A stretch of 64,000 nucleotides of DNA from Clostridiaceae bacterium (GTDB lineage: Bacteria; Bacillota; Clostridia; Saccharofermentanales; DTU023), in NCBI GenBank assembly GCA_012518845.1, contig JAAYRJ010000052.1, positions 14,381-78,380 of the forward strand, given 5' to 3'. The translations under genes were made by a program, and so were the position numbers. The notes under the pieces were generated by a model, which saw only the letters and a list, made by a program, of their open reading frames with translations, did no database searches and was not told where the DNA came from. This document shows, one piece after another, positions 21,772 to 40,048 of the stretch. The stretch's first letter is position 1. Each line of letters opens with the position of its first letter.

Positions 21772-21867
21772 TCTTTTATCGCTTTACCACTTTAGCGAGA
21801 TAAAGTAAAATTGTTATCAGAAAACATTTGTTATAGATTAATGCTATTATTTTTATTGGAGAAAAAG

Positions 21868-22680
21868 ATGTCTAATCAAGTAATTTTAGAAAAATTTAAT
21901 TTGGCGATTGAGTATATGACTTTGCTTGCTGAGTATAACTATAAATTAATCGATCTTAATATGATTGAACCTTTTCGAATTGAGGACAAAGAATTTCAAC
22001 CTAGTAGTCTTGTATTTGAGAGAAATGAAACTATGTATGCTATTCGAAGTGACTGGACAAGGTCACTGTTAAATTATAATGATAGTTATTTTCTTGATGA
22101 TCGTATGTTTTGTTATTTTGGAACTGTTATTCGTGATTATCAATCTTTTTATCAGGCGGGTGTTGAACTTTACGAACCAAGCGAAGTAGAAATGCTAAAA
22201 AGTATTCAAATTCATTTAGACTTTGTTAAAAATAAAATAAGAAATCAAGGTAAAAATATAACGGCTTTAATTCTAAATAATGATCGATTTATTGATTTGT
22301 TTATTGAAAAATATGATTTGTCGGAAAGTATTCGTACTTTGATTTATGAAAAAAATCTGAGTGAATTAAAAAATCAGCTTGAGCCTGATAATCCTCTCTT
22401 AAAAATTCTACAAGCAAGAGTTAGCGAGCAGTATACTTTGCTAGCGAGCGAATTTTCGAATACAGAAGAATTGCAAACTATTGAAAAAATCAAAAAAATA
22501 GCAGATCAAGAAAATCTTAAGTTTATGATAGACTTGTCGTTTAAATCACCTCAGGGCTATTACAATGGTTTATATTTTCAGGCTTTCATAAATTATCATA
22601 CCCCAATTTTAAGTGGTGGTGAGTACGATAATCGGGCTTTTGGTATTGCCCTCAATATTGAAGATGGAGGACTTTTATGA
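21868..22680 (+). CDS. hisZ: ATP phosphoribosyltransferase regulatory subunit (short HisZ)
   Basis: HisRS-like motifs (IRSDWTRS, YQAGVELY, GGEYDN). It is translationally coupled to the short-form hisG. The ATG at 21868 follows GGAG. Confidence 0.75.
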   Translation: MSNQVILEKFNLAIEYMTLLAEYNYKLIDLNMIEPFRIEDKEFQPSSLVFERNETMYAIRSDWTRSLLNYNDSYFLDDRMFCYFGTVIRDYQSFYQAGVELYEPSEVEMLKSIQIHLDFVKNKIRNQGKNITALILNNDRFIDLFIEKYDLSESIRTLIYEKNLSELKNQLEPDNPLLKILQARVSEQYTLLASEFSNTEELQTIEKIKKIADQENLKFMIDLSFKSPQGYYNGLYFQAFINYHTPILSGGEYDNRAFGIALNIEDGGLL

Positions 22681-23282
22681 TTACTGTTGCCTTGCCTAAA
22701 GGTAGATTATTAAAAGAAGTTATTGCATATTTAGAGTCCTGTGACCTAAAAAAATATGCAGATAAACTTGATCCAAAATCACGACTACTCTTTACGGATG
22801 TTGATGGAATCCGTTTTGTTTATGCTAAAGGCAGAGATGTGCCTACCTATGTTGAATCAGGAATAGCCGATTTAGGTTTTATTGGTTCTGACATTATTAC
22901 TGAAAACAAATTTGAATTGTTAAATGTGTCGCAACTGCCATTTGGCTATTGTCGTTTTTCATTATGTGGTTTACCAGGTGTTAAGCAATTTAAGAGTGTA
23001 GCCACAAGCTTTTACAATATTTCTTTTCAATATTTTAAAAAGAAAAAACAGCAAGTTTCATTTATCCATTTACACGGCTCGGTTGAGCTTGCACCTTTAT
23101 TAGGTTTAGCAGACGGAATCGTCGATATTGTCCAAACAGGTAGCACTTTAAAAGCAAATGGTTTGATTGAGTATGAAACGATTATGGATGTCCAGGCTTG
23201 TTTAATTGCTAATAGGCAAACATTTTATACAAAAGAAGCTGAAGTTTATCCTTTTTTGAAAAAGTTAGGAGTTTTTGAATAA
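22677..23282 (+). CDS. hisG: ATP phosphoribosyltransferase, short form
   Basis: ITVALPKGRL N-terminus and DIVQTGSTLKANGL motif. At 201 aa it is the HisZ-dependent type. Confidence 0.92.
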   Translation: MITVALPKGRLLKEVIAYLESCDLKKYADKLDPKSRLLFTDVDGIRFVYAKGRDVPTYVESGIADLGFIGSDIITENKFELLNVSQLPFGYCRFSLCGLPGVKQFKSVATSFYNISFQYFKKKKQQVSFIHLHGSVELAPLLGLADGIVDIVQTGSTLKANGLIEYETIMDVQACLIANRQTFYTKEAEVYPFLKKLGVFE

Positions 23283-24541
23283 TGAAATTAGAGTTACCTG
23301 AAATTCAGGCTGCTAGAGAATATCTTGCTCAGTTTTCCCAAGTTAAAGAAGCCGAAGATCAAGAATCTTTAAGCCAAGTAATGGATATTCTGCAAAATGT
23401 TCGCAAGTATGGTGATAACGCTTTATTTGAATATACAGAGAAATTTGATGGTCAGAAATTAGAGAAGTTTAAAGTTCCAGAAACGTGGCTCGAGCAAAGT
23501 TATCTTGCACTGGAGCCAGAGTTGCGTCAAGCATTGGAATTTATTAAGCAGCGAATTCAAAAGTACGAAGAACAAATAAAATATAAAGACAAAGAATTAA
23601 CTGAATTTAAATATGTCTATCATCCGATTGAAAAAGTAGGTTTCTATGTCCCAGGCGGCACAGCTTTATATCCATCATCTGTACTTATGAGTATTATTGC
23701 TGCTCAGGTAGCCGGCGTGCCCAAGATCTATGCAGTTACACCAACTTTTGAAGAAAATAATATTACATTTGCAACTCTTTATATTTGCGGCGTGACGAAT
23801 GTTTATCAAATAGGTGGAGCTCAAGCAATTGCAGCTTTAGCCTATGGCACCGAGAGCATTCCTAAAGTCGATAAAATTGTAGGCCCAGGAAATCGTTATG
23901 TAGCTTTAGCAAAACGATTAGTCTTTGGTGAAGTTGGAATTGATTCTATAGCTGGACCTAGTGAAATTTTGCTTTATATTGATGAAAATGTTGATCCAGA
24001 ATCAATTACATTAGATATTTTTGCTCAAGCAGAACATGATCCAGATGCTAAAACTTTTTTATTAGCAGAAAATAAAAAGATTTTGAAAGATATACATGCT
24101 TTGATTGTGAAAAAACTGCCTGAGCAAAAACGTAGTGATATTATTACTCAGTCAATTAATAATAATCATTATTCCATTATTGGTGAAGCAAAAGATTTAA
24201 TTGCTATTATTAATCAGATAGCACCAGAGCATGTTTCGATCCAACATGCAAATTCAGACGAAATAATTTCAAAAATCCATTATGCTGGTGCAATTTTTAA
24301 GGGCAATTACTCGCCAGAGGCCATAGGCGATTATGTGGCAGGACCATCCCATGTCTTACCAACAAGTGGTAGTGCCAGATTTAGTCATGGTCTTAATGTA
24401 AATGATTTTTTGACTAGTCATGCAATTATAGATATTGAACCTGAAACTTATCAGCAAATTGCTCCGTATGGGATCAAAGTCGCATATGCGGAAGGACTTT
24501 ACGCACATGCCGAAAGTTTAGAGGCAAGATTAAAAGAATAA
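23282..24541 (+). CDS. hisD: Histidinol dehydrogenase
   Basis: IAGPSEIL, QAEHD and PEHV motifs. Confidence 0.94.
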   Translation: MKLELPEIQAAREYLAQFSQVKEAEDQESLSQVMDILQNVRKYGDNALFEYTEKFDGQKLEKFKVPETWLEQSYLALEPELRQALEFIKQRIQKYEEQIKYKDKELTEFKYVYHPIEKVGFYVPGGTALYPSSVLMSIIAAQVAGVPKIYAVTPTFEENNITFATLYICGVTNVYQIGGAQAIAALAYGTESIPKVDKIVGPGNRYVALAKRLVFGEVGIDSIAGPSEILLYIDENVDPESITLDIFAQAEHDPDAKTFLLAENKKILKDIHALIVKKLPEQKRSDIITQSINNNHYSIIGEAKDLIAIINQIAPEHVSIQHANSDEIISKIHYAGAIFKGNYSPEAIGDYVAGPSHVLPTSGSARFSHGLNVNDFLTSHAIIDIEPETYQQIAPYGIKVAYAEGLYAHAESLEARLKE

Positions 24542-24582
24542 TATTTTATTGAATAAAATACCTAGTGAAAGAGAAGAACAAT

Positions 24583-25572
24583 ATGATAATCATGAATCGT
24601 AATACCAGTCCCATCAAGCCTTTGACAGATGAACAAATTTTTAATGCTGTGAAAAAAACAAATTATAATCAATATCCAGATCAGGAACGAATAAATTTTA
24701 TTAATTTATATGCCGATTATTTTGGCTTTAATCCAGACAATATAGAAGTAGCTAATGGCTCTGATGAATGGATTCAAAAATTGATTATAACGCTTGGTAA
24801 AAACGGGGTAATGTCTTTAAATCCCGATTTTGTGATGTATCAAATCTATACAGAACAATTTTTGCCAGAAATTTATTTTGTTAATGCTGAGCCTGATTTT
24901 ACCTTTGATTTTGATAAAGTAATTGTTGCCATCAAAGCTAAAAAACCTTCATTATTTTTAATATCTAATCCACAAAATCCAACCGGTACGATGTTTAGTA
25001 CCCAAGATTTGCAACGTTTAGCTGATGCTATGGCAGAGGTTGATGGTTATCTTGGCTTAGACGAGTGTTATATTGATTTTGCTAAAGATTACGAACGACC
25101 AAAGGGAAAAAATATTATTATTCTCAGAACTTTAAGTAAAGTTTATGGGATGGCAGGCTTGCGTGTAGGGATGGCAATTGCGGAAAAAGAAACTTTGGAT
25201 ATAATCACTCAAATAAATCATCCTTACCCTTTAAATTCACTAGCGTTAAATTTAGCCAGTGAATTGTTTTCGGATAAAAAAGCTTTACAAAAATTCAAAA
25301 ATTATCAATTTGAGAGTAAAGCTAGATTAGAGACAGCCTTAGATCAAGTTTCAGATTTAATGGAAATAAAAGAATCTTATACTAATTATATTTTTACTTA
25401 TGGTGATGCTGCAATAGATATGGCAAACTTTTTATTGGATAAAGGATTTTTGAGTCGCATCTATGATGTACCGATCTTACAAAATGCAGCTCGTTATTCA
25501 ATTATCAAATTAGAAGAATATCAAGCATTAAATGAGGCAATTATAGAATGGAGAAATCAGTATGTTGAGTAG
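24583..25572 (+). CDS. hisC: Histidinol-phosphate aminotransferase
   Basis: SNPQNPTG and LSKVYGMAGLRVG motifs. The start is uncertain (GTG 24565, ATG 24583 or ATG 24592). Confidence 0.88.
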   Translation: MIIMNRNTSPIKPLTDEQIFNAVKKTNYNQYPDQERINFINLYADYFGFNPDNIEVANGSDEWIQKLIITLGKNGVMSLNPDFVMYQIYTEQFLPEIYFVNAEPDFTFDFDKVIVAIKAKKPSLFLISNPQNPTGTMFSTQDLQRLADAMAEVDGYLGLDECYIDFAKDYERPKGKNIIILRTLSKVYGMAGLRVGMAIAEKETLDIITQINHPYPLNSLALNLASELFSDKKALQKFKNYQFESKARLETALDQVSDLMEIKESYTNYIFTYGDAAIDMANFLLDKGFLSRIYDVPILQNAARYSIIKLEEYQALNEAIIEWRNQYVE

Positions 25573-26143
25573 GAAAAGAGAAACGCTAGAAACTAAAATC
25601 GAATTGAAATTAGCCGAGCAAACAGATACAAATGAAAGATCGGAAATAGATACAGGTATAGGTTTTTTTGATCATATGCTTACTTTGTTGGCATTTCACT
25701 CCAATTTATTTTTATCGGTTAAGGCTGATGGTGATTTAGAAGTAGATTTTCACCATACAGTTGAAGATACTGGTATTGTTCTTGGTGAATTAATTTATGA
25801 GCTATATCAAAGCAAAAAGTCTTTTGGACGTTATGGTTTTTTCTACTTGCCGATGGATGAATCTTTAGCAAGAGTCACACTTGATTTATCTGGACGACCA
25901 GGTTTTTATTTTAACTGTAATTTTGCTAGTGAAAAAGTTGGAGAGTTTGATACGGAACTTGTTAAAGAGTTCTTCAATGCGGTGGCAATGAATGCGAAAA
26001 TGACTTTGCATATTGATTTGTTAAAAGGTGGAAATAGCCATCATGAAATTGAAGCTGTCTTTAAGGCATTTGGTCGTAGCCTGGCTATTGCCTTAGAAAC
26101 CAAAACAGGTGGAGTGCCATCTTCCAAAGGGGTGATTGCATGA
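25562..26143 (+). CDS. hisB: Imidazoleglycerol-phosphate dehydratase
   Basis: GIGFFDHML, HHTVEDTGI and GGNSHHEIEA motifs. Monofunctional (193 aa). Confidence 0.94.
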   Translation: MLSRKRETLETKIELKLAEQTDTNERSEIDTGIGFFDHMLTLLAFHSNLFLSVKADGDLEVDFHHTVEDTGIVLGELIYELYQSKKSFGRYGFFYLPMDESLARVTLDLSGRPGFYFNCNFASEKVGEFDTELVKEFFNAVAMNAKMTLHIDLLKGGNSHHEIEAVFKAFGRSLAIALETKTGGVPSSKGVIA

Positions 26144-26847
26144 TTGATATTATTCCAGCAATAGATTTAATCGAAGGTCAAAGTGTTAGATTAGAACAAG
26201 GCGATTATCAAACAAAATCCTTAATGCCAAGAACAGCTAAAGAAGCGATAAAATTTTACAATCAATTTGAACAAGTTAAAGGGATTCATATTATTGATCT
26301 TCTAGCAGCTAAGGAAAAAAAGGCAAAAGAGATGGATTTGATTTCAGAACTTAGGGCTTTGACAGATTTGCCAATACAAATTGGTGGTGGTTTGAGAAAT
26401 GAAGAAACAATTCGGTTTTACGATAGTAAAGGCATTGACTACTTTATTTTAGGTACAAAAGCAATAACAGATTTTGCTTGGCTAGAAGAGATGACAAACT
26501 TATTTCCAGCCCGAATTATAGTTGGCATTGATGCTAGAGACGATTATATTTATATAAATGGCTGGACAGAGAATTCCGGTATTCAAATTCCAGATCATTT
26601 AGCAAAAATTGAAAAACTTAATTTGCAAGGAATTATTTATACAGATATCGCTAAAGATGGGATGAATAAAGGTCCCAATTTTGAAAAAACTGCCGCCTTA
26701 GCTAAAAATACAAGACATAAAGTAATTGCTAGCGGTGGAGTACGTGATAATTCAGATTTGAAAAAGTTAGCAGCACTTGAAATACCAGCGGCAATTGTTG
26801 GTAAAGCAGCTAACACAGATGCTTTTTGGCAATCAATTGTTGATTAG
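26140..26847 (+). CDS. hisA: ProFAR isomerase
   Basis: IIPAIDL, QIGGGLR and ASGGV motifs. Its ATG overlaps the hisB stop (ATGA), leaving no room for hisH. Confidence 0.92.
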   Translation: MIDIIPAIDLIEGQSVRLEQGDYQTKSLMPRTAKEAIKFYNQFEQVKGIHIIDLLAAKEKKAKEMDLISELRALTDLPIQIGGGLRNEETIRFYDSKGIDYFILGTKAITDFAWLEEMTNLFPARIIVGIDARDDYIYINGWTENSGIQIPDHLAKIEKLNLQGIIYTDIAKDGMNKGPNFEKTAALAKNTRHKVIASGGVRDNSDLKKLAALEIPAAIVGKAANTDAFWQSIVD

Positions 26848-26856
26848 AGGGCAGAC

Positions 26857-27624
26857 ATGATAGAGAAAACAAGAAAAATTCTTCCTTGTCTTGATATAAG
26901 AAATGGGAAAGTAGTTAAAGGTGTAAATTTTGAAAATATTAGAGAAATGGGCGATCCAGTCGAGTTGGCAACCAAATATGGAGCGGCAGGAGCTGATGCC
27001 CTAGCTTTTTTAGATATAACAAAAACTAAAGAGAAGCATGGATTTTATCTAGATCTAATTTCTGAAATTACAAGCAACATTGAGATTCCGCTATTTGTGG
27101 GTGGAGGTATTAGCACGCTTAAAGATATTAATTTAATATTAAATGCTGGTGCCAGCAAAGTTAGTATTGCTTCTGCAGCTCTAACAAATCCTAACTTTAT
27201 CTCAGATGCAGCTTCTGAATTTGGACACGACAAAATAATTATTGCATTAGATGTTGCCCAAGATTTAGCTGACAATAAATATTATGCTTATACTCATGGA
27301 GGTCAGAAAAAAACAGATTTTGAAGTGTTTGAACTAATTGAAAAATTTGACCAAATTGGAGTGTCAGCATTTTTGATTACGGGAATTTCATTTGATGGCT
27401 CAAAATCTGGCTTTGACCTTGCTTTTTTTAAAGAAGCAGGAAAAAGAACAAATACAACTTTAATCGCAAGTGGTGGTGCTGGAAAAATTGAAGATTTCGT
27501 TGATTTATTTCAAAAAACAAATGTTGAATATAGTTTAGCAGCTTCTATTTTTCATCAAAACACAGTAAATATTAGAGAGCTAAAACAAAATTTAGCTTCG
27601 AAAAACATTAATGTTAATCTGTAA
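26857..27624 (+). CDS. hisF: Imidazole glycerol phosphate synthase cyclase subunit
   Basis: ILPCLDIRNGKVVKG, VGGGI and ASGGAG motifs. The catalytic Asp equivalents (D13, D132) are present. Confidence 0.93.
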   Translation: MIEKTRKILPCLDIRNGKVVKGVNFENIREMGDPVELATKYGAAGADALAFLDITKTKEKHGFYLDLISEITSNIEIPLFVGGGISTLKDINLILNAGASKVSIASAALTNPNFISDAASEFGHDKIIIALDVAQDLADNKYYAYTHGGQKKTDFEVFELIEKFDQIGVSAFLITGISFDGSKSGFDLAFFKEAGKRTNTTLIASGGAGKIEDFVDLFQKTNVEYSLAASIFHQNTVNIRELKQNLASKNINVNL

Positions 27625-27679
27625 TTTCTCTCTAGAAAAAAGCAAAATTTCCAAACTAATTAAAAGCGAAAGGATTATT

Positions 27680-28303
27680 ATGCAACCTGATTTTACAAAA
27701 AATAATGGCTTGTTATCTGTTATTTTACAGGACTTTGATACAAAACAAGTTTTAATGAATGGCTTTATGAATGAAGAAGCCTATAAATTAACCAAACAAG
27801 AAAATGTTGTTTGGTTTTATTCTAGATCAAAACAACGTCTTTGGAAAAAAGGGGAATCAAGTGGCCATGTTCAACATGTTGTAGAAATGACACTTGATTG
27901 TGATCAAGATGCCCTTCTAATTCAAGTTGTTCCGGCTGGACCAACTTGCCATCTTGGCAATACCAGTTGTTTTGATGATCCTTATTTTAATCTGGAAATT
28001 CTAGAAAAAACTATTCAAGATCGCATAAAAAATCCTAAAGAGGGTTCCTATACAAAATATTTGTTGGAACAAGGTTTAGATAAAATTTTGAAAAAAAGCA
28101 GTGAAGAAATGACCGAAACTATAATCGCTAGTAAAAATCAGGATAAAAATGAGATAATAGCAGAAGCATCGGATTTACTTTACCATGTAATTTTATTGTT
28201 AAATTCTCAAAAAATTTCTTTGAATGATGTCAAAGAAAATTTAGCAAAAAGACATGGCAAGGTACAGTCTTACAAGCGTCGAAAAGAAATTACAAATTGG
28301 TAA
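27680..28303 (+). CDS. hisI: Bifunctional PR-AMP cyclohydrolase / PR-ATP pyrophosphatase
   Basis: WFYSRSKQRLWKKGESSGH and DCDQDALL (HisI part), and a C-terminal HisE helix bundle (EASDLLYHVILLL). The ATG at 27680 follows AAAGGA. Confidence 0.9.
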   Translation: MQPDFTKNNGLLSVILQDFDTKQVLMNGFMNEEAYKLTKQENVVWFYSRSKQRLWKKGESSGHVQHVVEMTLDCDQDALLIQVVPAGPTCHLGNTSCFDDPYFNLEILEKTIQDRIKNPKEGSYTKYLLEQGLDKILKKSSEEMTETIIASKNQDKNEIIAEASDLLYHVILLLNSQKISLNDVKENLAKRHGKVQSYKRRKEITNW

Positions 28304-28398: not shown

Positions 28399-28424
28399 TA
28401 GATAGTTAATTTAGATAGTTAATT
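28399..28424. repeat. Perfect tandem 13-bp direct repeat (TAGATAGTTAATT x2) directly upstream of the PII-like gene
   Basis: 28399-28411 and 28412-28424 are identical, followed by a T-run and the ORF start. Confidence 0.9.
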
Positions 28425-28428
28425 TTTT

Positions 28429-29091
28429 TTGAAAGCGAGAATTTTGGTGAACAATCAAAGTTTATTCATAAGTGTCTTAAATCGAGGTAAAGCTGAGGAA
28501 TTCTTGAATGAGATGCGTATTTTTGATCTGACAGGTGGCATTGTCATGTTAGGCGAAGGAACAGCGACTAATCGGCTATTACAAATTCTTGGCTTAGCAG
28601 AAACTCAAAAAGAAATAATCATTCTTCCCATTTTTGATTCCAAGTTTGAAGATCCAATCCATGAGATGATGTTACATCATTTTCAAGTGGATAAAAGAAG
28701 AAAAGGAATTGCATTTTCAATTCCAATAAGTTATTTAGGTGCAGAAAGTGTATTACCAAAAGATAAAATGTATGACCCAGCCTGCTTTTTTTCTCAATGT
28801 ATTTTTGCTGTTGTTGATGAAGGTCAAGGTCAGCAGGTAATGAAACATGTTCAAGCAACCGGACAAACGGGTGGCACAATCATTCATGCGCGTGGTGCAG
28901 GAGTTCCAAGTGATTCTTACTTTCCTTTCAAAATAGAACCTCAAAAGGATATAGTCATGATTTTAGTAAAAACAGAGCGAGTAAAAACAGTCCAAAATTA
29001 CTTGAACGAAAAAATGAATTTTTCTGATCCAAGAAAAGGTATTATTTTTACCTTGCCAGTATCTAGAGTGACAGGTATCTTTCAAGGTTAG
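28429..29091 (+). CDS. Tandem PII-like (two P-II fold modules) protein
   Basis: Two copies of the pattern hhhxVVxxGxxxxVhxxhxxxGxxGGTIhxxxG ... GIxFxhPh: SLFISVLNRGKAEE...GIAFSIPIS and CIFAVVDEGQGQQ...GIIFTLPVS. The start is uncertain (TTG 28429, or GTG 28447). Confidence 0.65.
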   Translation: MKARILVNNQSLFISVLNRGKAEEFLNEMRIFDLTGGIVMLGEGTATNRLLQILGLAETQKEIIILPIFDSKFEDPIHEMMLHHFQVDKRRKGIAFSIPISYLGAESVLPKDKMYDPACFFSQCIFAVVDEGQGQQVMKHVQATGQTGGTIIHARGAGVPSDSYFPFKIEPQKDIVMILVKTERVKTVQNYLNEKMNFSDPRKGIIFTLPVSRVTGIFQG

Positions 29092-29099
29092 GGGTTAAA

Positions 29100-30980
29100 A
29101 TGAATTTATTACAATCCAAAACGAAAGAAGTAGCGCAATCTATTTTACCTATAGTTATTTTTGTAGGGATATTATCAATGGCTTTTGTTCGGGTAGACTT
29201 TCCCGTCGTCCAAAGATTTTTTATCGCTTCAATTTTAGTCTTTTTAGGTTTATCTATTTTTCTTTGGGGCATTGATCAAAGTATGGAACCAATTGGTTAC
29301 CATATGGCACATGAAATAGCTACGTCTAAAAGCCTAGGTAAAACCGTTATTTTGAGCTTTTTACTAGGGTTTTTGATCACAATTGCAGAACCAGATATTT
29401 TGATTTTAGCAAATCAGGTTGAAAGTGCTTCTGGAGGTACTCTAGCTGCAGATTTTTTAGTCCGAATGATTTCAGTTGGAGTTGGTGTGATGATTTCCAT
29501 TGCCTCTATTAGACTATTATCTGGTTTTAAATATAATGTTATGATGACCATAGTCTATATCATTATCTTTATACTTGGTCTAAAAGTATCTGAAGAATTT
29601 TTGGCTATCTCAGTTGATGCCTCTGGTGCAACTACTGGTGCTTTAACTACACCCTTTGTGCTTGCAATTTCTGTAGGCCTATCAAGAATTAAAGGTGGAA
29701 AATCATCCGAAGAAGATTCTTTTGGGATGGTTGGTGCAATGAGTGCAGGTCCAATCCTTGCAGTCATGTTAATTTCTATTATCTCTGGGCAAACTAATAT
29801 TCATGGACAGGCAGAACCTTTTATTTTGTCAGATCAAGTTTTTGCTCCATTTATTGCAGACTTTAAAGTGACTTTTGTGGACTCAATATTTGCTTTATTA
29901 CCAATCACAGCCTTGTTTTTTATCTTTAATGCTTTCAAGTTTAAAGTTAGTCGTTCAGAGCTGATTCGAATAATTCGTGGTTTAGTATATACATTATTAG
30001 GTTTAACTTTGTTCTTAGTTGGTGCCCATACTGGTTTTATGGATATGGGGCGTGTGCTTGGAGCTAGTCTTGCTGATTCATATCTTCCCTATATGCCTTT
30101 CATAGGCTTATTGCTTGGAATGTTTGTTGTTTTAGCCGAACCGGCAGTTCATGTTTTAGGGGAGCAGGTAGAAGATGTCACAGCTGGTAATATCAAAGAC
30201 AGTGTTTTGAGGACGACTTTGTCAATGGGGGTGGGTGTAGCCATTGCCTTATCTATGATAAAAATTATGGTTCCTGAAGTCAGACTTTGGTATTTTCTTT
30301 TACCAGGCTTTGCAATCTCTATCATTCTTTCTTATTTCGTTGATCCTGTTTTTGTTGGGATTGCATTTGATGCCGGTGGTGTTGCATCTGGTCCTATGGC
30401 AGCAACATTTGTCATGGCGTTTGCTCAGGGTGCAGCAGATAGTGTGCCAACTGCCGATGTTCTTAAAGATGGCTTTGGAGTTATTGCCATGATCGCAATG
30501 ACGCCAGTATTAAGTGTTATGGTTTTAGGCTCAATTAATAAGATTCAAATGATTCGCACCCAAAAAGTTAAGGATGAAGTCGATCATTCTGAAATCTTTG
30601 AGGTATGTACGATCGATAAAGATTCCGATCAAAAACTCCATGATTTAATTTTTTGTGTAATTGATCGTGGTTTTACAGAAGAAGTGATTGATCTTGCTCG
30701 TTCAGTAGGAGCAAGAGGTGCAACCATTTTACATGGACGTGATGCTAGGACAGGTACTTGGCTTAGTTCCTCTTTGAATATAGAGAAAGAAAAAGAAATT
30801 ATTTGGTTAATTGTTGATGGCGATTTAACTAGAAAAGTCAGCAAAACTTTATTGGAAGCCTCAGAAGAAGAAGACAGCCATATTGTATCAATCTTTTCAT
30901 TGCCTATTACTGATGTAAAAGGTATACCAACCGAAAACTTAAAAACAAATAATGAAAATGTAGACATAATCGTCCAATAA
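29100..30980 (+). CDS. Fused double DUF1538 membrane domain with a C-terminal PII-like domain
   Basis: There is an internal duplication: LGLSIFLWG...FLITIAEPDILILANQVE versus LGLTLFLVG...FVVLAEPAVHVLGEQVE. The C-terminal module is LIFCVIDRGFTEEVIDLARSVGARGATILHGRD...IVSIFSLPI. Confidence 0.65.
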   Translation: MNLLQSKTKEVAQSILPIVIFVGILSMAFVRVDFPVVQRFFIASILVFLGLSIFLWGIDQSMEPIGYHMAHEIATSKSLGKTVILSFLLGFLITIAEPDILILANQVESASGGTLAADFLVRMISVGVGVMISIASIRLLSGFKYNVMMTIVYIIIFILGLKVSEEFLAISVDASGATTGALTTPFVLAISVGLSRIKGGKSSEEDSFGMVGAMSAGPILAVMLISIISGQTNIHGQAEPFILSDQVFAPFIADFKVTFVDSIFALLPITALFFIFNAFKFKVSRSELIRIIRGLVYTLLGLTLFLVGAHTGFMDMGRVLGASLADSYLPYMPFIGLLLGMFVVLAEPAVHVLGEQVEDVTAGNIKDSVLRTTLSMGVGVAIALSMIKIMVPEVRLWYFLLPGFAISIILSYFVDPVFVGIAFDAGGVASGPMAATFVMAFAQGAADSVPTADVLKDGFGVIAMIAMTPVLSVMVLGSINKIQMIRTQKVKDEVDHSEIFEVCTIDKDSDQKLHDLIFCVIDRGFTEEVIDLARSVGARGATILHGRDARTGTWLSSSLNIEKEKEIIWLIVDGDLTRKVSKTLLEASEEEDSHIVSIFSLPITDVKGIPTENLKTNNENVDIIVQ

Positions 30981-31001: not shown

Positions 31002-31040
31002 TTAGAAAAGGCTCTCTTAAAATGGAGAGCCTATTTCTAA
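31002..31040. terminator. Hairpin between the convergent DUF1538 gene and purL
   Basis: TTAGAAAAGGCTCTC / GAGAGCCTATTTCTAA pair with one bulge around an 8-nt loop. Confidence 0.45.
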
Positions 31041-34997: not shown

Positions 34998-35999
34998 ATG
35001 GGAAAAATAGCACAAAAGTCAAATAAAAGTGGTTTTCAATTGCGACAAGATGCTTCTAAAGCAGAATTCTGGCAAAAGCCGGTTGTATGGCTAACGTGTA
35101 CTTTTATTTGTATTTTTCTCTGGGGGACAGCATTTCCAGCAGTAAAAACTGGCTATGATTTATTTCAAATTGATCAATCAGTGGATAATTCGATAGCCTC
35201 TCTTTTACTTTTTGCTGGTATGAGATTTTCTTTAGCAGGACTTTTAACTATTGTTTTTACAGTAGTATCAGAAAAAAGAAATCCACTACCGCAAAATAGT
35301 AGACAAATAAGAGCAGTATTAATTTTAGCTATCCCTCAAACTATTTTACAATATGGTTTTTTCTTCGTGGGCTTAGCTAATACTTCAGGAACAATTGGTT
35401 CGATTTTGGCTAGCACATCTTCGTTTATAGCCGTTATTTTGGCTAGTTTTTTCTTTAAAGATGAAAAATTAACGAATTATGTAGTATTAGGTTGTGTAGT
35501 AGGATTTGCAGGTGTAGTAACAATTGATTTTCAAGCCGGCGACAATCTTGGTTTCAGTATGATAGGTGATGGAATGATGTTGTTGTCATCAGTAGCGTCA
35601 GCGATTGCAACTAATCTTAGCAAAAAATTAACAGAATTTTCACATCCACGCTTGTTAAGCGGTTGGAATTTTTTAGTTGGTGGAATTGTATTAATGTCGG
35701 TAGGTAAAGGTTTTAATGGTGAAGTTAGACCAATCAATATTAGTGCATGGTTAATCCTATTATATTTAGCATTTTTATCTGCAACAGCTTTTTCCTTATG
35801 GACAACCATGCTAAAATACCATGAAGTTGCCAAATTAAGTGTTTTTAAGAGTTTAATTCCAGTTGTTGGAGCGGTTGGCTCTGCTCTAATTTTGAAAGAA
35901 AACATTTTACAACCACGGATAATAATTGCATTAATATTAGTAGTATTAGGGATTTTCTTAGTTAATTATAAAAAGCCAAGTGCAGGAGGAGAAAGATGA
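34998..35999 (+). CDS. EamA/DMT-family transporter (10-TM), first gene of the ask-hom-thrC operon
   Basis: Two EamA-like halves. Its stop overlaps the ask start (ATGA at 35996). Confidence 0.75.
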   Translation: MGKIAQKSNKSGFQLRQDASKAEFWQKPVVWLTCTFICIFLWGTAFPAVKTGYDLFQIDQSVDNSIASLLLFAGMRFSLAGLLTIVFTVVSEKRNPLPQNSRQIRAVLILAIPQTILQYGFFFVGLANTSGTIGSILASTSSFIAVILASFFFKDEKLTNYVVLGCVVGFAGVVTIDFQAGDNLGFSMIGDGMMLLSSVASAIATNLSKKLTEFSHPRLLSGWNFLVGGIVLMSVGKGFNGEVRPINISAWLILLYLAFLSATAFSLWTTMLKYHEVAKLSVFKSLIPVVGAVGSALILKENILQPRIIIALILVVLGIFLVNYKKPSAGGER

Positions 36000-37309
36000 A
36001 AGTAACAAAATTTGGTGGTAGCTCGTGTGCCGAAGCCTCTCAATTCACCAAAGTAAAAGCTATAATTGAAGCAGATCCAGAACGTAAAATAGTTGTGGTT
36101 TCTGCGCCTGGTAAGAGATTTGATGCAGACCATAAGGTAACAGATATGCTCTATCTATGTCATCAGTTTATGGGAATTGGTATTGGTGGGGATGAGGTTT
36201 TTGATTCCATTTGTGAAAGATTTTTATCTATTCAAAATGATTTGGACTTAGATATTGACTTGACTGAGGAATTAGAATCAACACGTAGTATCTTGCAAGC
36301 AGGTGCCTCAGTAGACTACACGGCGAGTCGAGGTGAATATTTCTCTGCAAAACTAATGGCAGCTTATTTGGGTTATCAATTTATTGATGCTGCCGATATA
36401 ATCCGTTTCGATACAAAAAACCAATATGATGAGATAAAAACCAAAGAATTAATCAGGGAAAAAATAGCAGAAGGTAATTATGTGGTGCCAGGTTTCTACG
36501 GTTCAAAGGAAAATGGTGAAATAGTTACTTTTCCTAGGGGTGGTTCAGATATTACTGGATCTATTCTAGCTTCTGCCTTGGGTGTAGACGAATATGAAAA
36601 CTGGACAGATGTTTCAGGATTTTTAGCAGCTGATCCCCGTATTGTTGATAACCCCAAACCACTGAGAATAGTAACTTATGAGGAATTAAGAGAACTAAGT
36701 TATATGGGAGCAAATGTTTTACAAGAAGAATCAATCTTGCCCGCAAGGAAAAGAAACATTCCTATCCATATTTTGAATACTAATTCACCAAGTGATCCAG
36801 GCACTTTGATTTTACCCAGGGCAAAGAGACAAGAAGAGGATTTTGTTGTTACTGGCATTGCAGGTTTGAAAGACTTTATGGTCATAGATGTTGAAAAATA
36901 TCACATGACAGAGGATTTAAGTTTTTTCCGCAAATTATTTTCTGTCTTTGAAGCAAATCGTATTCCAATTCATCATATGCCATCTTCGATTGACCGTGTA
37001 TCTATCATTGTCAAAGAAGAAAATATGAAAGGTCTGGAAAAAAAGATATTAGAAGAAATTGACATTTATTGTTCACCAGATATGATAGAAATCACGGGTG
37101 GCTTGTCACTACTAGCTGTTGTTGGTCAAAACATGGCCTTGCGCTCAGGTGTTGCGGGTAGAGTATTTGGCACTTTAGCTAATGCAGATGTAAACATCCG
37201 GATGATTTCACAAGGTTCTAGTGAACTCAATATTATTGTAGGAGTAGCGAATGAGGATTTCGAAAAATCCATCAGAGCAATTTATAATGAATTTTTTGAG
37301 GAAGATTAA
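35996..37309 (+). CDS. Aspartate kinase (monofunctional, two C-terminal ACT domains)
   Basis: KFGGSS and VVSAPG N-terminus, GGSD motif, ACT-like C-terminus. Confidence 0.9.
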   Translation: MKVTKFGGSSCAEASQFTKVKAIIEADPERKIVVVSAPGKRFDADHKVTDMLYLCHQFMGIGIGGDEVFDSICERFLSIQNDLDLDIDLTEELESTRSILQAGASVDYTASRGEYFSAKLMAAYLGYQFIDAADIIRFDTKNQYDEIKTKELIREKIAEGNYVVPGFYGSKENGEIVTFPRGGSDITGSILASALGVDEYENWTDVSGFLAADPRIVDNPKPLRIVTYEELRELSYMGANVLQEESILPARKRNIPIHILNTNSPSDPGTLILPRAKRQEEDFVVTGIAGLKDFMVIDVEKYHMTEDLSFFRKLFSVFEANRIPIHHMPSSIDRVSIIVKEENMKGLEKKILEEIDIYCSPDMIEITGGLSLLAVVGQNMALRSGVAGRVFGTLANADVNIRMISQGSSELNIIVGVANEDFEKSIRAIYNEFFEED

Positions 37310-38548
37310 ATGAAAATAGCAATACTTGGTTTTGGAACAGTTGGTCAAGGGGTATACAACATACTCACAAAGAGCAAAAAAAATTATCAAGAAAAATTTG
37401 GTGAAGCTGTTGAAGTAGCAAAAATTTTGGTCTACGACGATAACGAAAAAAATGCAATCATCGAAAAACAGATTGTGGAAAATGCAGAACAAGTTTTGAC
37501 ACCAGATTTTGATGAAATTTTAACAGATCCAGAAATAGATCTAACGGTCGAAGTTACAAGCTCAAAAGATAAGGCGATTGAATATATAAGACAAAGTTTA
37601 GCAGCTGGTAAACATGTAACCACTGCAAATAAATCAGCAATTGCAGCAGATTTTATGAATTTACAAGAACTTGCTATCAAGAACAATGTTCATCTTAAAT
37701 TTGAAGCTTCGGTTGGAGGTGGAATTCCAGTATTGGCACCTTTAAGTAGAGTTGTTGCATTTAATGAAATTTCGAAATTGCATGGTATTATCAATTCTTC
37801 TACCAACTATGTCTTAACTGAATTATGTAAAGGTAGAGACCTAGATGAAGTTATGGTCGAGGCACGAGAGCTAGGTATTTTAGAAGCTGATCCAACAGAT
37901 GATGTTGCTGGTTACGATGCTAGGAGAAAATTAGCAATTTTGGCAATGATGATTTTACAAATCGACATTGCAGAAGAAAATGTTTCAAGCTTTGGTATTA
38001 CTCAGGTCGATAGTCATGACACCGAAATTTTACGTGAGCAGGGCTATGACCTTAAATTAATTGCTGAATTATTAAGTGGTGAAGAAGCGGGACTTAAAGA
38101 AAATCAGTTTGCGATTTCTGTGTTCCCAACAGCCATAAAAGACAGTAAGTTTAGCCGTGTTAACGGTATGATGAACGAAGTAGCATTTTTTGGTTCACAC
38201 AGTGGCGAATTACGTTTTTATGGTGCTGGCGGTTCTATGTATCCAACGGCTAATGCTATTGTTTCTGATATTTATGAAATATTAACTACAGAACCGATCT
38301 ACTTTCCAGCTTTGGAAAACTCCTATGAGGATGTCTCAGAAGATATTGAATCATCTTTTTATATTCGTATTCCGGAAAAATTGATGGATGACAAGTCTAT
38401 ATTAGATGAAATTAATAGTCTTGCAGAAAAAGTTATCCAAAATGATAAAGAAGTTATAATCTTTTCTAAAGCAATTTCTAATCAAAAAGCAATAGAGCTT
38501 TTTGAATGTGGTTTACATATCATTCGGATTAATAAAGCGATAGACTAA
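37310..38548 (+). CDS. hom: Homoserine dehydrogenase
   Basis: IAILGFGTVGQGV, ANK, FEASVGGGIP and a C-terminal ACT-like region. Confidence 0.92.
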   Translation: MKIAILGFGTVGQGVYNILTKSKKNYQEKFGEAVEVAKILVYDDNEKNAIIEKQIVENAEQVLTPDFDEILTDPEIDLTVEVTSSKDKAIEYIRQSLAAGKHVTTANKSAIAADFMNLQELAIKNNVHLKFEASVGGGIPVLAPLSRVVAFNEISKLHGIINSSTNYVLTELCKGRDLDEVMVEARELGILEADPTDDVAGYDARRKLAILAMMILQIDIAEENVSSFGITQVDSHDTEILREQGYDLKLIAELLSGEEAGLKENQFAISVFPTAIKDSKFSRVNGMMNEVAFFGSHSGELRFYGAGGSMYPTANAIVSDIYEILTTEPIYFPALENSYEDVSEDIESSFYIRIPEKLMDDKSILDEINSLAEKVIQNDKEVIIFSKAISNQKAIELFECGLHIIRINKAID

Positions 38549-38584
38549 GTACATTAAACAGCACTAGCATGAAGTGGAGAGATT

Positions 38585-40048
38585 ATGCGTTATCATAGCA
38601 CGAGAAACAGCCAAAAGTTTGTTCAACCTTCAGAAGCTGTTTTGCAAGGATTGGCTGAAGATGGTGGCTTATTTGTACCAGAGTATTTGCCACAACTTAA
38701 TTTTGAGAACTGGCTTGATTATAGCTATCAACAAATTGCACAAAGTATTTTCGAAATATTTTTCTCTGATTTAGGTAAAGAAACAATTTCTAAGATTTTA
38801 GAAAATAGTTACGGTAGTAATTTTGATCATTTGGAAATTGTACCAACTCATTGGCTTAATGATGAAAAAGGTTTTTTAGAACTATGGCATGGTCCAACTC
38901 TGGCTTTTAAAGACATTGCTTTACAATTTTTACCACATTTAATGCAAGCTGCTAAACAATTAAGAAATGATCAGAGTAAAATTTTAATTTTAACTGCAAC
39001 ATCTGGCGATACTGGTAAAGCTGCCATGGAGGGTTTTAGCGCTGTTGAAGATTTCGAAGTGCTTGTTTTCTATCCTTATCAGGGTGTTAGTTCATTTCAA
39101 AAAAGACAGATGCTAACTAGAGAAGCAGATAATGTCAGAGCGATTGCTGTAAAAGGTGATTTTGATACTTGTCAGCGTGGTGTAAAAGATATCTTTGTTG
39201 ATCAAAATTTTAATCTAAAAATGGCTGAACAAGGTTATGAATTGTCTTCAGCCAACTCGATTAATATCGGCCGTTTAGTTCCACAGATGAACTATTATAT
39301 TTATAGCTATTTGCAAGCAGTTAAGACGAACAAGATTAGCTACGGGGAACCATTAAATGTGGTTGTTCCTACAGGTAATTTTGGTAACATTTTAGCTGCT
39401 TGCTACACTAAGGAAATGGGACTACCTTTAGGCGAAATTCTATTAGCAGCCAACCAGAATAACGTTTTGGCAGATTTTCTTTTTGATGGTACATATAATG
39501 CTAATCGTGATTTAGTCAAAACATCATCGCCTTCAATGGATATTTTAGTTGCGAGCAATCTAGAGCGTTATCTCTATCTTAAAAATCCTGATAGTAGCTG
39601 GATTAACACAATCATGGCAGATTTGACTAACAACGGTCAATTTTCTGTGCCAGAACAGTTTTTAGATATTAAAGCGGCTTGGGCTGATGAAACAGAAACA
39701 AGTAAAGCAATTGCTGATGTATATAATTCTTACAATTATTTAATAGATCCACATACCGCAGTCGCCTATGTGGTCGCAGAAAAACTAGTCAAAAATCATA
39801 AAACATTGATAGCTTCAACCGCTAGTCCTTATAAATTTATTACTAAAGTTTTAGATTCTTTACAGTTAGAAACTCCAGAGAGTGACCGGGAGGCAATTAA
39901 TAAAATTGCTAAAGTTATTGATGCAGAAAATCCTACAATTCCCGCAACAGTTGAAAAATTATGGAATTTAAATCAGGATGAAGAAATAATTATTGAAAAG
40001 AAAAACATGATTCAAGCTATTAATGAACAAATTTTTGGAAATTTATAG
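38585..40048 (+). CDS. thrC: Threonine synthase (long form)
   Basis: YHSTRN N-terminus, GPTLAFKD PLP-lysine motif and TSGDTG. Confidence 0.93.
   Translation: MRYHSTRNSQKFVQPSEAVLQGLAEDGGLFVPEYLPQLNFENWLDYSYQQIAQSIFEIFFSDLGKETISKILENSYGSNFDHLEIVPTHWLNDEKGFLELWHGPTLAFKDIALQFLPHLMQAAKQLRNDQSKILILTATSGDTGKAAMEGFSAVEDFEVLVFYPYQGVSSFQKRQMLTREADNVRAIAVKGDFDTCQRGVKDIFVDQNFNLKMAEQGYELSSANSINIGRLVPQMNYYIYSYLQAVKTNKISYGEPLNVVVPTGNFGNILAACYTKEMGLPLGEILLAANQNNVLADFLFDGTYNANRDLVKTSSPSMDILVASNLERYLYLKNPDSSWINTIMADLTNNGQFSVPEQFLDIKAAWADETETSKAIADVYNSYNYLIDPHTAVAYVVAEKLVKNHKTLIASTASPYKFITKVLDSLQLETPESDREAINKIAKVIDAENPTIPATVEKLWNLNQDEEIIIEKKNMIQAINEQIFGNL

Follow-up and report, generated by a model that had tools for sequence, protein, structure and literature searches.

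Two adjacent genes on a contig of a Clostridiaceae bacterium raise the question of whether a membrane transporter can carry one part of its own PII-type sensor and leave the rest to a soluble partner encoded beside it. The window considered here is the whole stretch of 64,000 nucleotides analysed (contig JAAYRJ010000052.1, positions 14,381 to 78,380 of the forward strand), and both open reading frames (ORFs) lie on its + strand, gene 1 followed by gene 2. Few signal integrators are as widespread as the PII proteins, whose known logic is that of symmetric homotrimers. A first-pass annotation had read gene 1 as two PII-like modules and gene 2 as a membrane protein whose DUF1538 core is duplicated and whose C-terminus bears a third PII-like module, and had proposed a pseudo-heterotrimer that gates the membrane part. 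The observation is confirmed in every structural particular and the interpretation is partly supported. In the favoured explanation, the two genes would form one cassette for a secondary transporter that brings along a PII-type sensor of its own, an asymmetric pseudo-heterotrimer which gates transport; as a whole, this explanation is given a probability of roughly 0.55. The observation lies far beyond chance. Homologues number more than 7,500 for gene 2 (word-indexed search) and more than 3,000 for gene 1.

Three PII-like modules in two genes

Gene 1 (28447..29091, + strand) encodes a soluble protein with two PII-like modules, defined by its ORF, by the N-termini of homologues and by the AlphaFold2 (AF2) model. 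The ORF begins 143 bp downstream of hisIE, closes at 29091 and can alternatively be opened at TTG 28429. The GTG at 28447 appears the more likely start, because homologues are 213-214 amino acids (aa) long and begin MNNQ... or MTKK...; on this basis the product has 214 and not, as first annotated, 220 aa, and its two-module composition stands. Gene 2 (29100..30980, + strand; ORF, Pfam and AF2) encodes the DUF1538 membrane protein of 626 aa. Its Shine-Dalgarno-like AGGGG (29090..29094, + strand), read from the sequence, stands 5 nt ahead of the ATG and overlaps the TAG stop of gene 1; in relatives, the two genes usually overlap by 4 nt.

The modules are referred to as a, b, and c. Module a comprises residues 4-94 of gene 1 (28456..28728, + strand; alignment and hhalign) and module b residues 113-211 (28783..29079, + strand; Pfam and Foldseek). 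Module c (residues 513-609 of gene 2; 30636..30926, + strand; hhalign, Foldseek and consensus) is tethered via about 35 residues to the last transmembrane helix. For profile-profile comparison with hhalign, the modules were cut from the homologue alignments A1 and A2, and all three proved linked (a with b 99.2%, b with c 99.7%, a with c 98.3%). Of gene 1, the Pfam P-II model (PF00543) matches only the latter half (32.2 bits, cutoff 25, E 1.4e-7); module a went unrecognised in the Pfam search, and residues ~490-626 of gene 2 matched no model. Of the assignments expected from hidden Markov models (HMMs), those of DUF1538 and of P-II in module b were thus obtained with Pfam, whereas modules a and c were missed by it.

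The structure predictions agree with the profile comparison. The AF2 model of gene 1 (predicted local distance difference test, pLDDT, 83; predicted template modelling score, pTM, 0.82) contains the beta-alpha-beta-beta-alpha-beta fold twice, and the same fold occurs in gene 2 at residues 514-603. In Foldseek searches of the PDB, gene 1 retrieves GlnK1 and plant PII at probability 1.0, and module c retrieves TTHA0516, GlnK1, SbtB, and CPII at the same probability, which bears out the third module noted at first pass. Model match and fold together place the modules in the PII superfamily. Profile A1 finds NifI1 (9p1x_H) with E 4e-4 as the solved sequence nearest to module c; in the PDB profile search no solved structure of this PII subfamily was found, the context of the nearest one, NifI1 (9p1x), being unrelated. 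Foldseek with the whole gene 1 chain matched no known tandem arrangement (TM-score 0.29). An arrangement of the two-ferredoxin-fold type (chlorite dismutase, ABM, ACT) was dismissed at a TM-score of ~0.29 and a root-mean-square deviation of ~16 A.

Motifs were compared with Escherichia coli GlnB and GlnK. Relative to these sequences, the GGT (G27/T29 equivalent), the RGxG at the T-loop base, and a lysine at the K58 position (EPxKE) are kept, and the T-loop, with 7 residues fewer, has no Tyr51 region. The ~19-residue T-loop with Tyr51 and the T-G-x-x-G-D-G-K-I-F B-loop of canonical GlnB/GlnK are not found. A GxG B-loop is present in modules a and b (K-G-I-A-F in a, K-x-G-N-G-I-I-F in b), and that of module c is degenerate. 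Module a is divergent; its T-loop is short and ordered, and it contains a GEGT motif that is invariant. In module b, the T-loop (residues 150-166; 28894..28944, + strand) is better conserved than any other segment of the protein, with the lowest column entropy (0.88 bits, type A), yet it is modelled as disordered in isolation (pLDDT <50 at 154-160). Loops that become ordered upon binding their target, such as those of GlnK-AmtB and SbtB-SbtA, characteristically combine conservation with disorder, and this segment is a candidate docking loop in the model.

Conservation of the pair and coupling between its modules

The distribution of the pair was assessed in a census of 169 loci, comprising the window and loci taken from look-ups and from scans of genomes and metagenomes, all annotated with HMMs built from the modules. 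A PII partner is found beside nearly every DUF1538 gene, from split operons of alpha-proteobacteria to Clostridia. The window architecture, a di-PII gene (encoding two modules, as gene 1 does) followed by a duplicated DUF1538 gene with a fused PII module, is represented by 69 intact loci including the window and by 13 truncated ones. In 71 loci, a duplicated DUF1538 gene devoid of the transporter-borne module is followed by a di-PII gene. Other forms are few: a DUF1538 duplicate followed by a single-chain tri-PII gene (5 loci), two separate DUF1538 genes followed by a single PII gene on alpha-proteobacterial plasmids (2 loci), a DUF1538 duplicate with a single PII gene before it and a di-PII gene after it (1 locus), and a fully fused 840-aa chain in which an internal start is absent (1 locus, L033 5662-8184). 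The 2+1 split seen in the window is widespread, and the presence of three folds is not universal. Gene order predicts architecture: the transporter carries module c wherever the di-PII gene lies upstream (42/42) and lacks it wherever that gene lies downstream (36/36). The sole conserved neighbour of the DUF1538 gene is the di-PII gene, present in 74 of 81 loci. The pair is obligate and constitutes a self-contained cassette across anaerobic Firmicutes.

The di-PII profile retrieves 3,150 cluster representatives. The hosts belong for the most part to the Clostridia, Tissierellia, and Erysipelotrichia, and some to the Lactobacillales and Spirochaetes; a Mageeibacillus metagenome-assembled genome is the nearest (77% identity). 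On a crude neighbour-joining tree, the window architecture forms one clade nested among the two-module forms, and the tri-PII forms lie near the base. Tri-PII genes stand directly 3' of a PII-less duplicated DUF1538 gene in all four cases looked up (P0248, P0251, P0260, P0273).

Several individual loci depart from the common forms. Single-chain tri-PII proteins of 304-357 aa (P0248, P0251, P0252, P0260, P0270, P0273, P0278, P0339, P0349, P0350) are rare, at about 10 of the 150 top cluster representatives; their loci are L081-L085, and a YitT/DUF2179 gene adjoins two of these (L083 2390-3247; L085 6232-7206). The split operons, which resemble UmpAB, are found on a Chelativorans plasmid (L086 3708-5046) and on a Methylocystis rosea plasmid (L087 3390-5148), both plasmids being conjugative or mobilizable. 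In each, DUF1538 and DUF1538 genes are followed by one PII gene of the same subfamily (112-122 aa), and the first DUF1538 gene of Chelativorans is shortened to 90 aa. Two di-PII genes follow one transporter in L074 (7483-9004). In Aerococcus (L080 6058-8567), a single PII precedes and a di-PII follows the transporter, and in Enterococcus lemanii (L068 7469-8121) the di-PII is split into two genes.

The contact between modules a and b was approached by mean-field direct coupling analysis (DCA) of 414 non-redundant di-PII sequences (effective number, Neff, 348), with four shuffles of the a/b pairing as control. As an internal check, equivalent intradomain contacts were recovered in both modules (G36-I57 and A148-I169; L20-G31 and M132-G143). 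The top pair overall is an inter-module one, H72 in alpha2 of a with T209 in the C-loop of b (z 10.5), and the next is V10 in beta1 of a with M171 in beta3 of b (z 8.0). Above z 4, there are 13 a-b pairs versus none in the shuffles. The a-b coupling map has no mirror symmetry (r = 0.008), and the mirrored partners of the top pairs are near zero; the interface is for this reason read as heterologous, as in a cyclic trimer. The contact is lateral and of the same polarity, the alpha2/B-loop/beta4 side of a lying on the C-loop and sheet of b. In PII proteins, the inter-subunit pockets are formed by one subunit's B-loop and T-loop base together with its neighbour's C-loop (bioRxiv 10.1101/2025.09.09.675011), and the a-b contact uses the same elements. 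A directional contact from a to b that has no counterpart from b to a leaves one slot open.

The DUF1538 core and its relation to UmpAB

The membrane part of gene 2 is matched twice by Pfam DUF1538 (PF07556; 403.3 bits versus a threshold of 22.6, E 2e-121), and its two halves are homologous (hhalign 99.6%), in accordance with the duplicated core first proposed for this 626-aa protein. Repeat 1 is UmpA-like (residues 5-232; 29112..29795, + strand; Pfam, NCBIfam, and HMM), and repeat 2 is UmpB-like (residues 256-481; 29865..30542, + strand; the same sources and the positive-inside pattern). The AF2 model (pLDDT 84, pTM 0.78) contains 18 helices arranged as 9+9 and broken exactly at the AEP motifs. 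These are the AEPD of repeat 1 (A96-D99; 29385..29396, + strand; break at 95/98; A96, E97, and D99 invariant) and the AEP of repeat 2 (A346-P348; 30135..30143, + strand; break at 345/348; E347, P348, and A349 invariant), so that the helix break noticed in each half is recovered. In the homologue alignment, A96-E97-P98 and E347-P348-A349 are invariant or nearly so. Invariant columns also define a D-A-S-G-A-T-T-G...T-T-P-F motif in repeat 1 (D173-F186; 29616..29657, + strand), in a region modelled as short helices (165-177, 183-198), and a D-A-G-G-V-A-S-G-P-M motif in repeat 2 (D424-T436; 30369..30407, + strand). The positive-inside pattern and a natural N-terminal fusion indicate a predicted N-in/C-in topology with the repeats inverted relative to each other.

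Broken helices, inverted repeats, and invariant motifs of acidic residues and glycines are features typically seen in ion-coupled carriers. The AEP broken helices and the two glycine-rich acidic motifs probably form an ion site. A DUF1538 chain was not found in the PDB by sequence or by profile, and Foldseek of the membrane part against the PDB gave no fold match (best TM-scores 0.11-0.14). The SbtA, Amt, NhaA-type, and 7+7 carrier folds were dismissed on the same search (TM-score <=0.14).

The first-pass annotation knew of no assigned substrate for DUF1538, and on this point it has to be corrected. UmpA and UmpB of Halomonas zhaodongensis, which belong to DUF1538, act jointly as a pH-dependent Na+(Li+,K+)/H+ antiporter; they confer Na+/Li+ tolerance, antiport was seen in vesicles, and a PII partner goes unmentioned in the paper (PMC5484666). 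The halves of gene 2 align near full length, residues 6-228 with UmpA and 257-488 with UmpB. Against the NCBIfam equivalog models NF041627 and NF041628, they score 150.9 and 137.5 bits, about 30% of the respective cutoffs of 490 and 500, and since these scores lie far below the equivalog cutoffs, gene 2 is judged not to be an orthologue. UmpAB consists of two separate subunits in a hetero-dimer, and the halves of gene 2 are fused in one 626-aa chain. By its sequence, gene 2 is a distant fused homologue of UmpAB, to which the added PII module and the di-PII partner are further differences. The two systems have in common the Pfam family, and the split proteobacterial operons of UmpAB type likewise carry a PII gene of the same subfamily. 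From this homology, monovalent-cation/proton antiport would be the likeliest activity of gene 2, an assignment made tentatively and at just under even odds.

Some observations on hosts and neighbours touch on the same subject. Among the named hosts of di-PII homologues (hits P0476, P0483, and P0435) are Evansella halocellulosilytica and Desulfurispira natronophila, both haloalkaliphiles, and "Candidatus Muirbacterium halophilum"; such haloalkaliphilic or halophilic hosts accord anecdotally with a Na+/H+ role. At the tri-PII locus L084 (5084-6652), the next gene encodes an MgtE_N and CBS domain protein and is followed by DUF1003, a possible further link to cation homeostasis.

Surroundings, rival explanations and comparison with known systems

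The cassette lies between a histidine cluster and purL, and a nif context is absent. The cluster (21811-28303) runs in the order hisZ, hisG, hisD, hisC, hisB, hisA, hisF, hisIE; hisH, which encodes the glutaminase partner of HisF, occurs neither between hisB and hisA nor in the nearby ORFs that were scanned. Beyond purL (34998-40048), there are a carboxylate/amino acid/amine transporter-like gene and the genes of aspartate kinase, homoserine dehydrogenase, and threonine synthase. Amino-acid biosynthesis of a general kind, and not a specifically nitrogen-regulated one, characterises the window. A GC-rich hairpin found by terminator scan between gene 2 and the convergent purL (31009..31032, unstranded) is likely a bidirectional terminator which closes the two-gene unit. 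Rfam matched zero families in the region and in the whole window, and an upstream riboswitch or leader was dismissed on that account; a promoter scan upstream of the cassette gave nothing better than shuffles. The nitrogen-demanding surroundings, to which the first-pass annotation had attached importance, are not conserved. The his operon and purL stand beside the cassette nowhere but in the window and in the four loci most closely related to it (L001-L004), and because of this confinement the context carries no functional information. A functional link to these genes was dismissed, as the context is lineage-specific and only the di-PII neighbour is conserved.

In the favoured mechanism, the three divergent modules would assemble into one asymmetric pseudo-heterotrimer per transporter, a and b being soluble and c tethered. 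Module a lies beside b with its B-loop side against the C-loop of b, on the evidence of coevolution, and module c would, somewhat more probably than otherwise, fill the open slot of the a-b pair. The 2+1, 0+3, 1+2, and all-fused architectures each give exactly three modules per transporter chain, and the three modules are supported as one unit because tri-PII chains follow PII-less DUF1538 genes and because a and b are in lateral contact. The C-loop of module a is more conserved where module c exists (2.39 versus 2.85 bits, overall entropy being equal). In the paired set of di-PII and module c sequences (75 sequences, Neff 57), a group of high-ranking a-c couplings lies between a98-101 and alpha2 of c, within 2 residues of a pair predicted by symmetry. 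The sensor would bind adenine nucleotides in no more than two intact pockets, those between a and b (a|b) and between b and c (b|c), the third being dead; the limit of two competent pockets is set by the degenerate B-loop of module c. The T-loop of module b, and perhaps also that of c, would then dock on the cytoplasmic face and gate transport, by analogy with GlnK on AmtB and SbtB on SbtA. The stricter proposal of an obligate, fully asymmetric PII pseudo-heterotrimer of three non-identical modules, two in tandem and soluble and one tethered, is nearly but not quite an even bet.

Several results weigh against this mechanism. In the paired set, the closure pairs predicted by symmetry, b183-c607 and a98-c581, were not significant, and transfer of the contact map gave z 1.2 from b to c and z 0.8 from c to a, compared with 2.6 for the a-b positive control. 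Transmembrane columns yield inter-protein couplings of like size, which indicates high phylogenetic noise. Of the 169 loci, 71 have two PII modules only, the tethered one being absent, and a three-membered ring is consequently not a general rule of the family. We know of no ligand for this PII subfamily. The sub-cutoff UmpA and UmpB scores of gene 2 imply that its substrate may differ, and the activity of UmpAB is known from one heterologous study.

Some of these results would suit layered homotrimers, in which the transporter is homotrimeric like AmtB or SbtA, the modules form separate a3, b3, and c3 rings, and the 2+1 split is incidental. The sister subfamily of those 71 loci works with two modules, the split proteobacterial operons have a single PII gene for which a homotrimer is expected, and no significant coupling of c with a or with b was found in the 75 pairs. 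Yet the strongest di-PII couplings (z to 10.5) join mid-strand sheet residues of a and b, and alpha2 with the C-loop, as expected of lateral neighbours and not of separate rings. The tri-PII chains and the 1:1 translational coupling suit one ring per transporter chain, and layered homotrimers are on the whole considered unlikely.

Two other explanations concern the membrane protein itself. A transporter linked to nitrogen or carbon, for ammonium, bicarbonate, or a histidine or purine intermediate, and regulated by a 2-oxoglutarate-sensing PII, would fit the classical gating of AmtB by PII and of SbtA by SbtB, the resemblance of module c to the SbtB, CPII, and GlnK folds, and the neighbouring hisZGDCBAF-IE and purL. 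It is made improbable by the restriction of that neighbourhood to the window and its closest relatives, other neighbours being unconserved; by a membrane domain that matches neither Amt nor SbtA nor any solved transporter in sequence or fold; by the sole characterised member of the family, which exchanges Na+/Li+/K+ for H+; and by a T-loop that is short and devoid of the Tyr51 region relative to GlnB/GlnK. More improbable still is a DUF1538 protein that transports nothing and serves as a membrane-anchored receptor or scaffold, its PII modules signalling to other cytoplasmic targets. The membrane fold has no solved counterpart, and YitT/DUF2179 (BB0017), with its C-terminal PII-like domain, has been discussed as a signal transducer (PMC6516651). 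Against such a role, UmpAB confers Na+/Li+ tolerance and vesicle antiport, the combination of inverted repeats and two broken helices with acidic and glycine motifs that are invariant is typical of ion-coupled carriers, and a conserved cytoplasmic partner gene is absent (81 loci).

The transporter with a built-in, asymmetric sensor, if true, would have consequences on several levels. To our knowledge, NifI1,2 is described as the only heteromeric PII case; the cassette would provide a second kind and the first covalently linked one. It would reveal how a sensor loses its symmetry, probably along with some of its active ligand pockets, and is wired to its target by tethering. The free single PII gene, di-PII, and single-chain tri-PII would then be stages of one evolutionary series. 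The cassette would also provide the gate of a transporter family that is widespread and has no member with a solved membrane fold. If cation/proton antiport holds, the energy or nucleotide state of the cell would be linked directly to Na+/K+/pH homeostasis. DUF1538 is common in anaerobic digesters and in Firmicutes of the gut and of fermentations, and for this family, with a single biochemical report and no solved structure, the cassette could give a functional handle. The sequences are not new, being routinely annotated in databases as "DUF1538 domain-containing protein" and "P-II family nitrogen regulator", and the system is undescribed in the searchable literature, which contained nothing on DUF1538 with PII, nor on tandem or fused PII. 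A literature match to "PII domains" in C. thermocellum was set aside, as it actually concerns an AmtB-PII fusion.

Among known systems, YitT/DUF2179 (Borrelia BB0017) resembles gene 2 in being a polytopic membrane protein with a C-terminal PII-like domain (PMC6516651). It differs in belonging to another membrane family, with four transmembrane helices and one PII-like domain with truncated loops, and in having no di-PII partner. NifI1,2 of methanogens (a 2:1 heterotrimer, PDB 9P1X) is a heteromeric and asymmetric PII trimer with non-equivalent pockets, one of them empty, and the two competent pockets and one dead pocket predicted here would resemble this asymmetric occupancy. However, its subunits are separate proteins which target nitrogenase and not a transporter, whereas the modules of the cassette are covalently linked (2+1, or three in one chain) and all three are unlike. 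With GlnK-AmtB and SbtB-SbtA, the cassette shares the joint encoding of a PII-fold protein and a membrane transporter, a T-loop that is both conserved and flexible, and retained nucleotide-site signatures. Its membrane partner, in contrast, is unrelated to Amt or SbtA, Foldseek of gene 2 matching SbtB (7egk_B) only and not SbtA, and in place of a free homotrimer there are three divergent modules, two fused and one tethered. The cassette would in kind be a PII-gated transporter, and it is a member of neither GlnK-AmtB nor SbtB-SbtA; the verdict reached is that it represents an uncharacterised variant of PII-gated transport.

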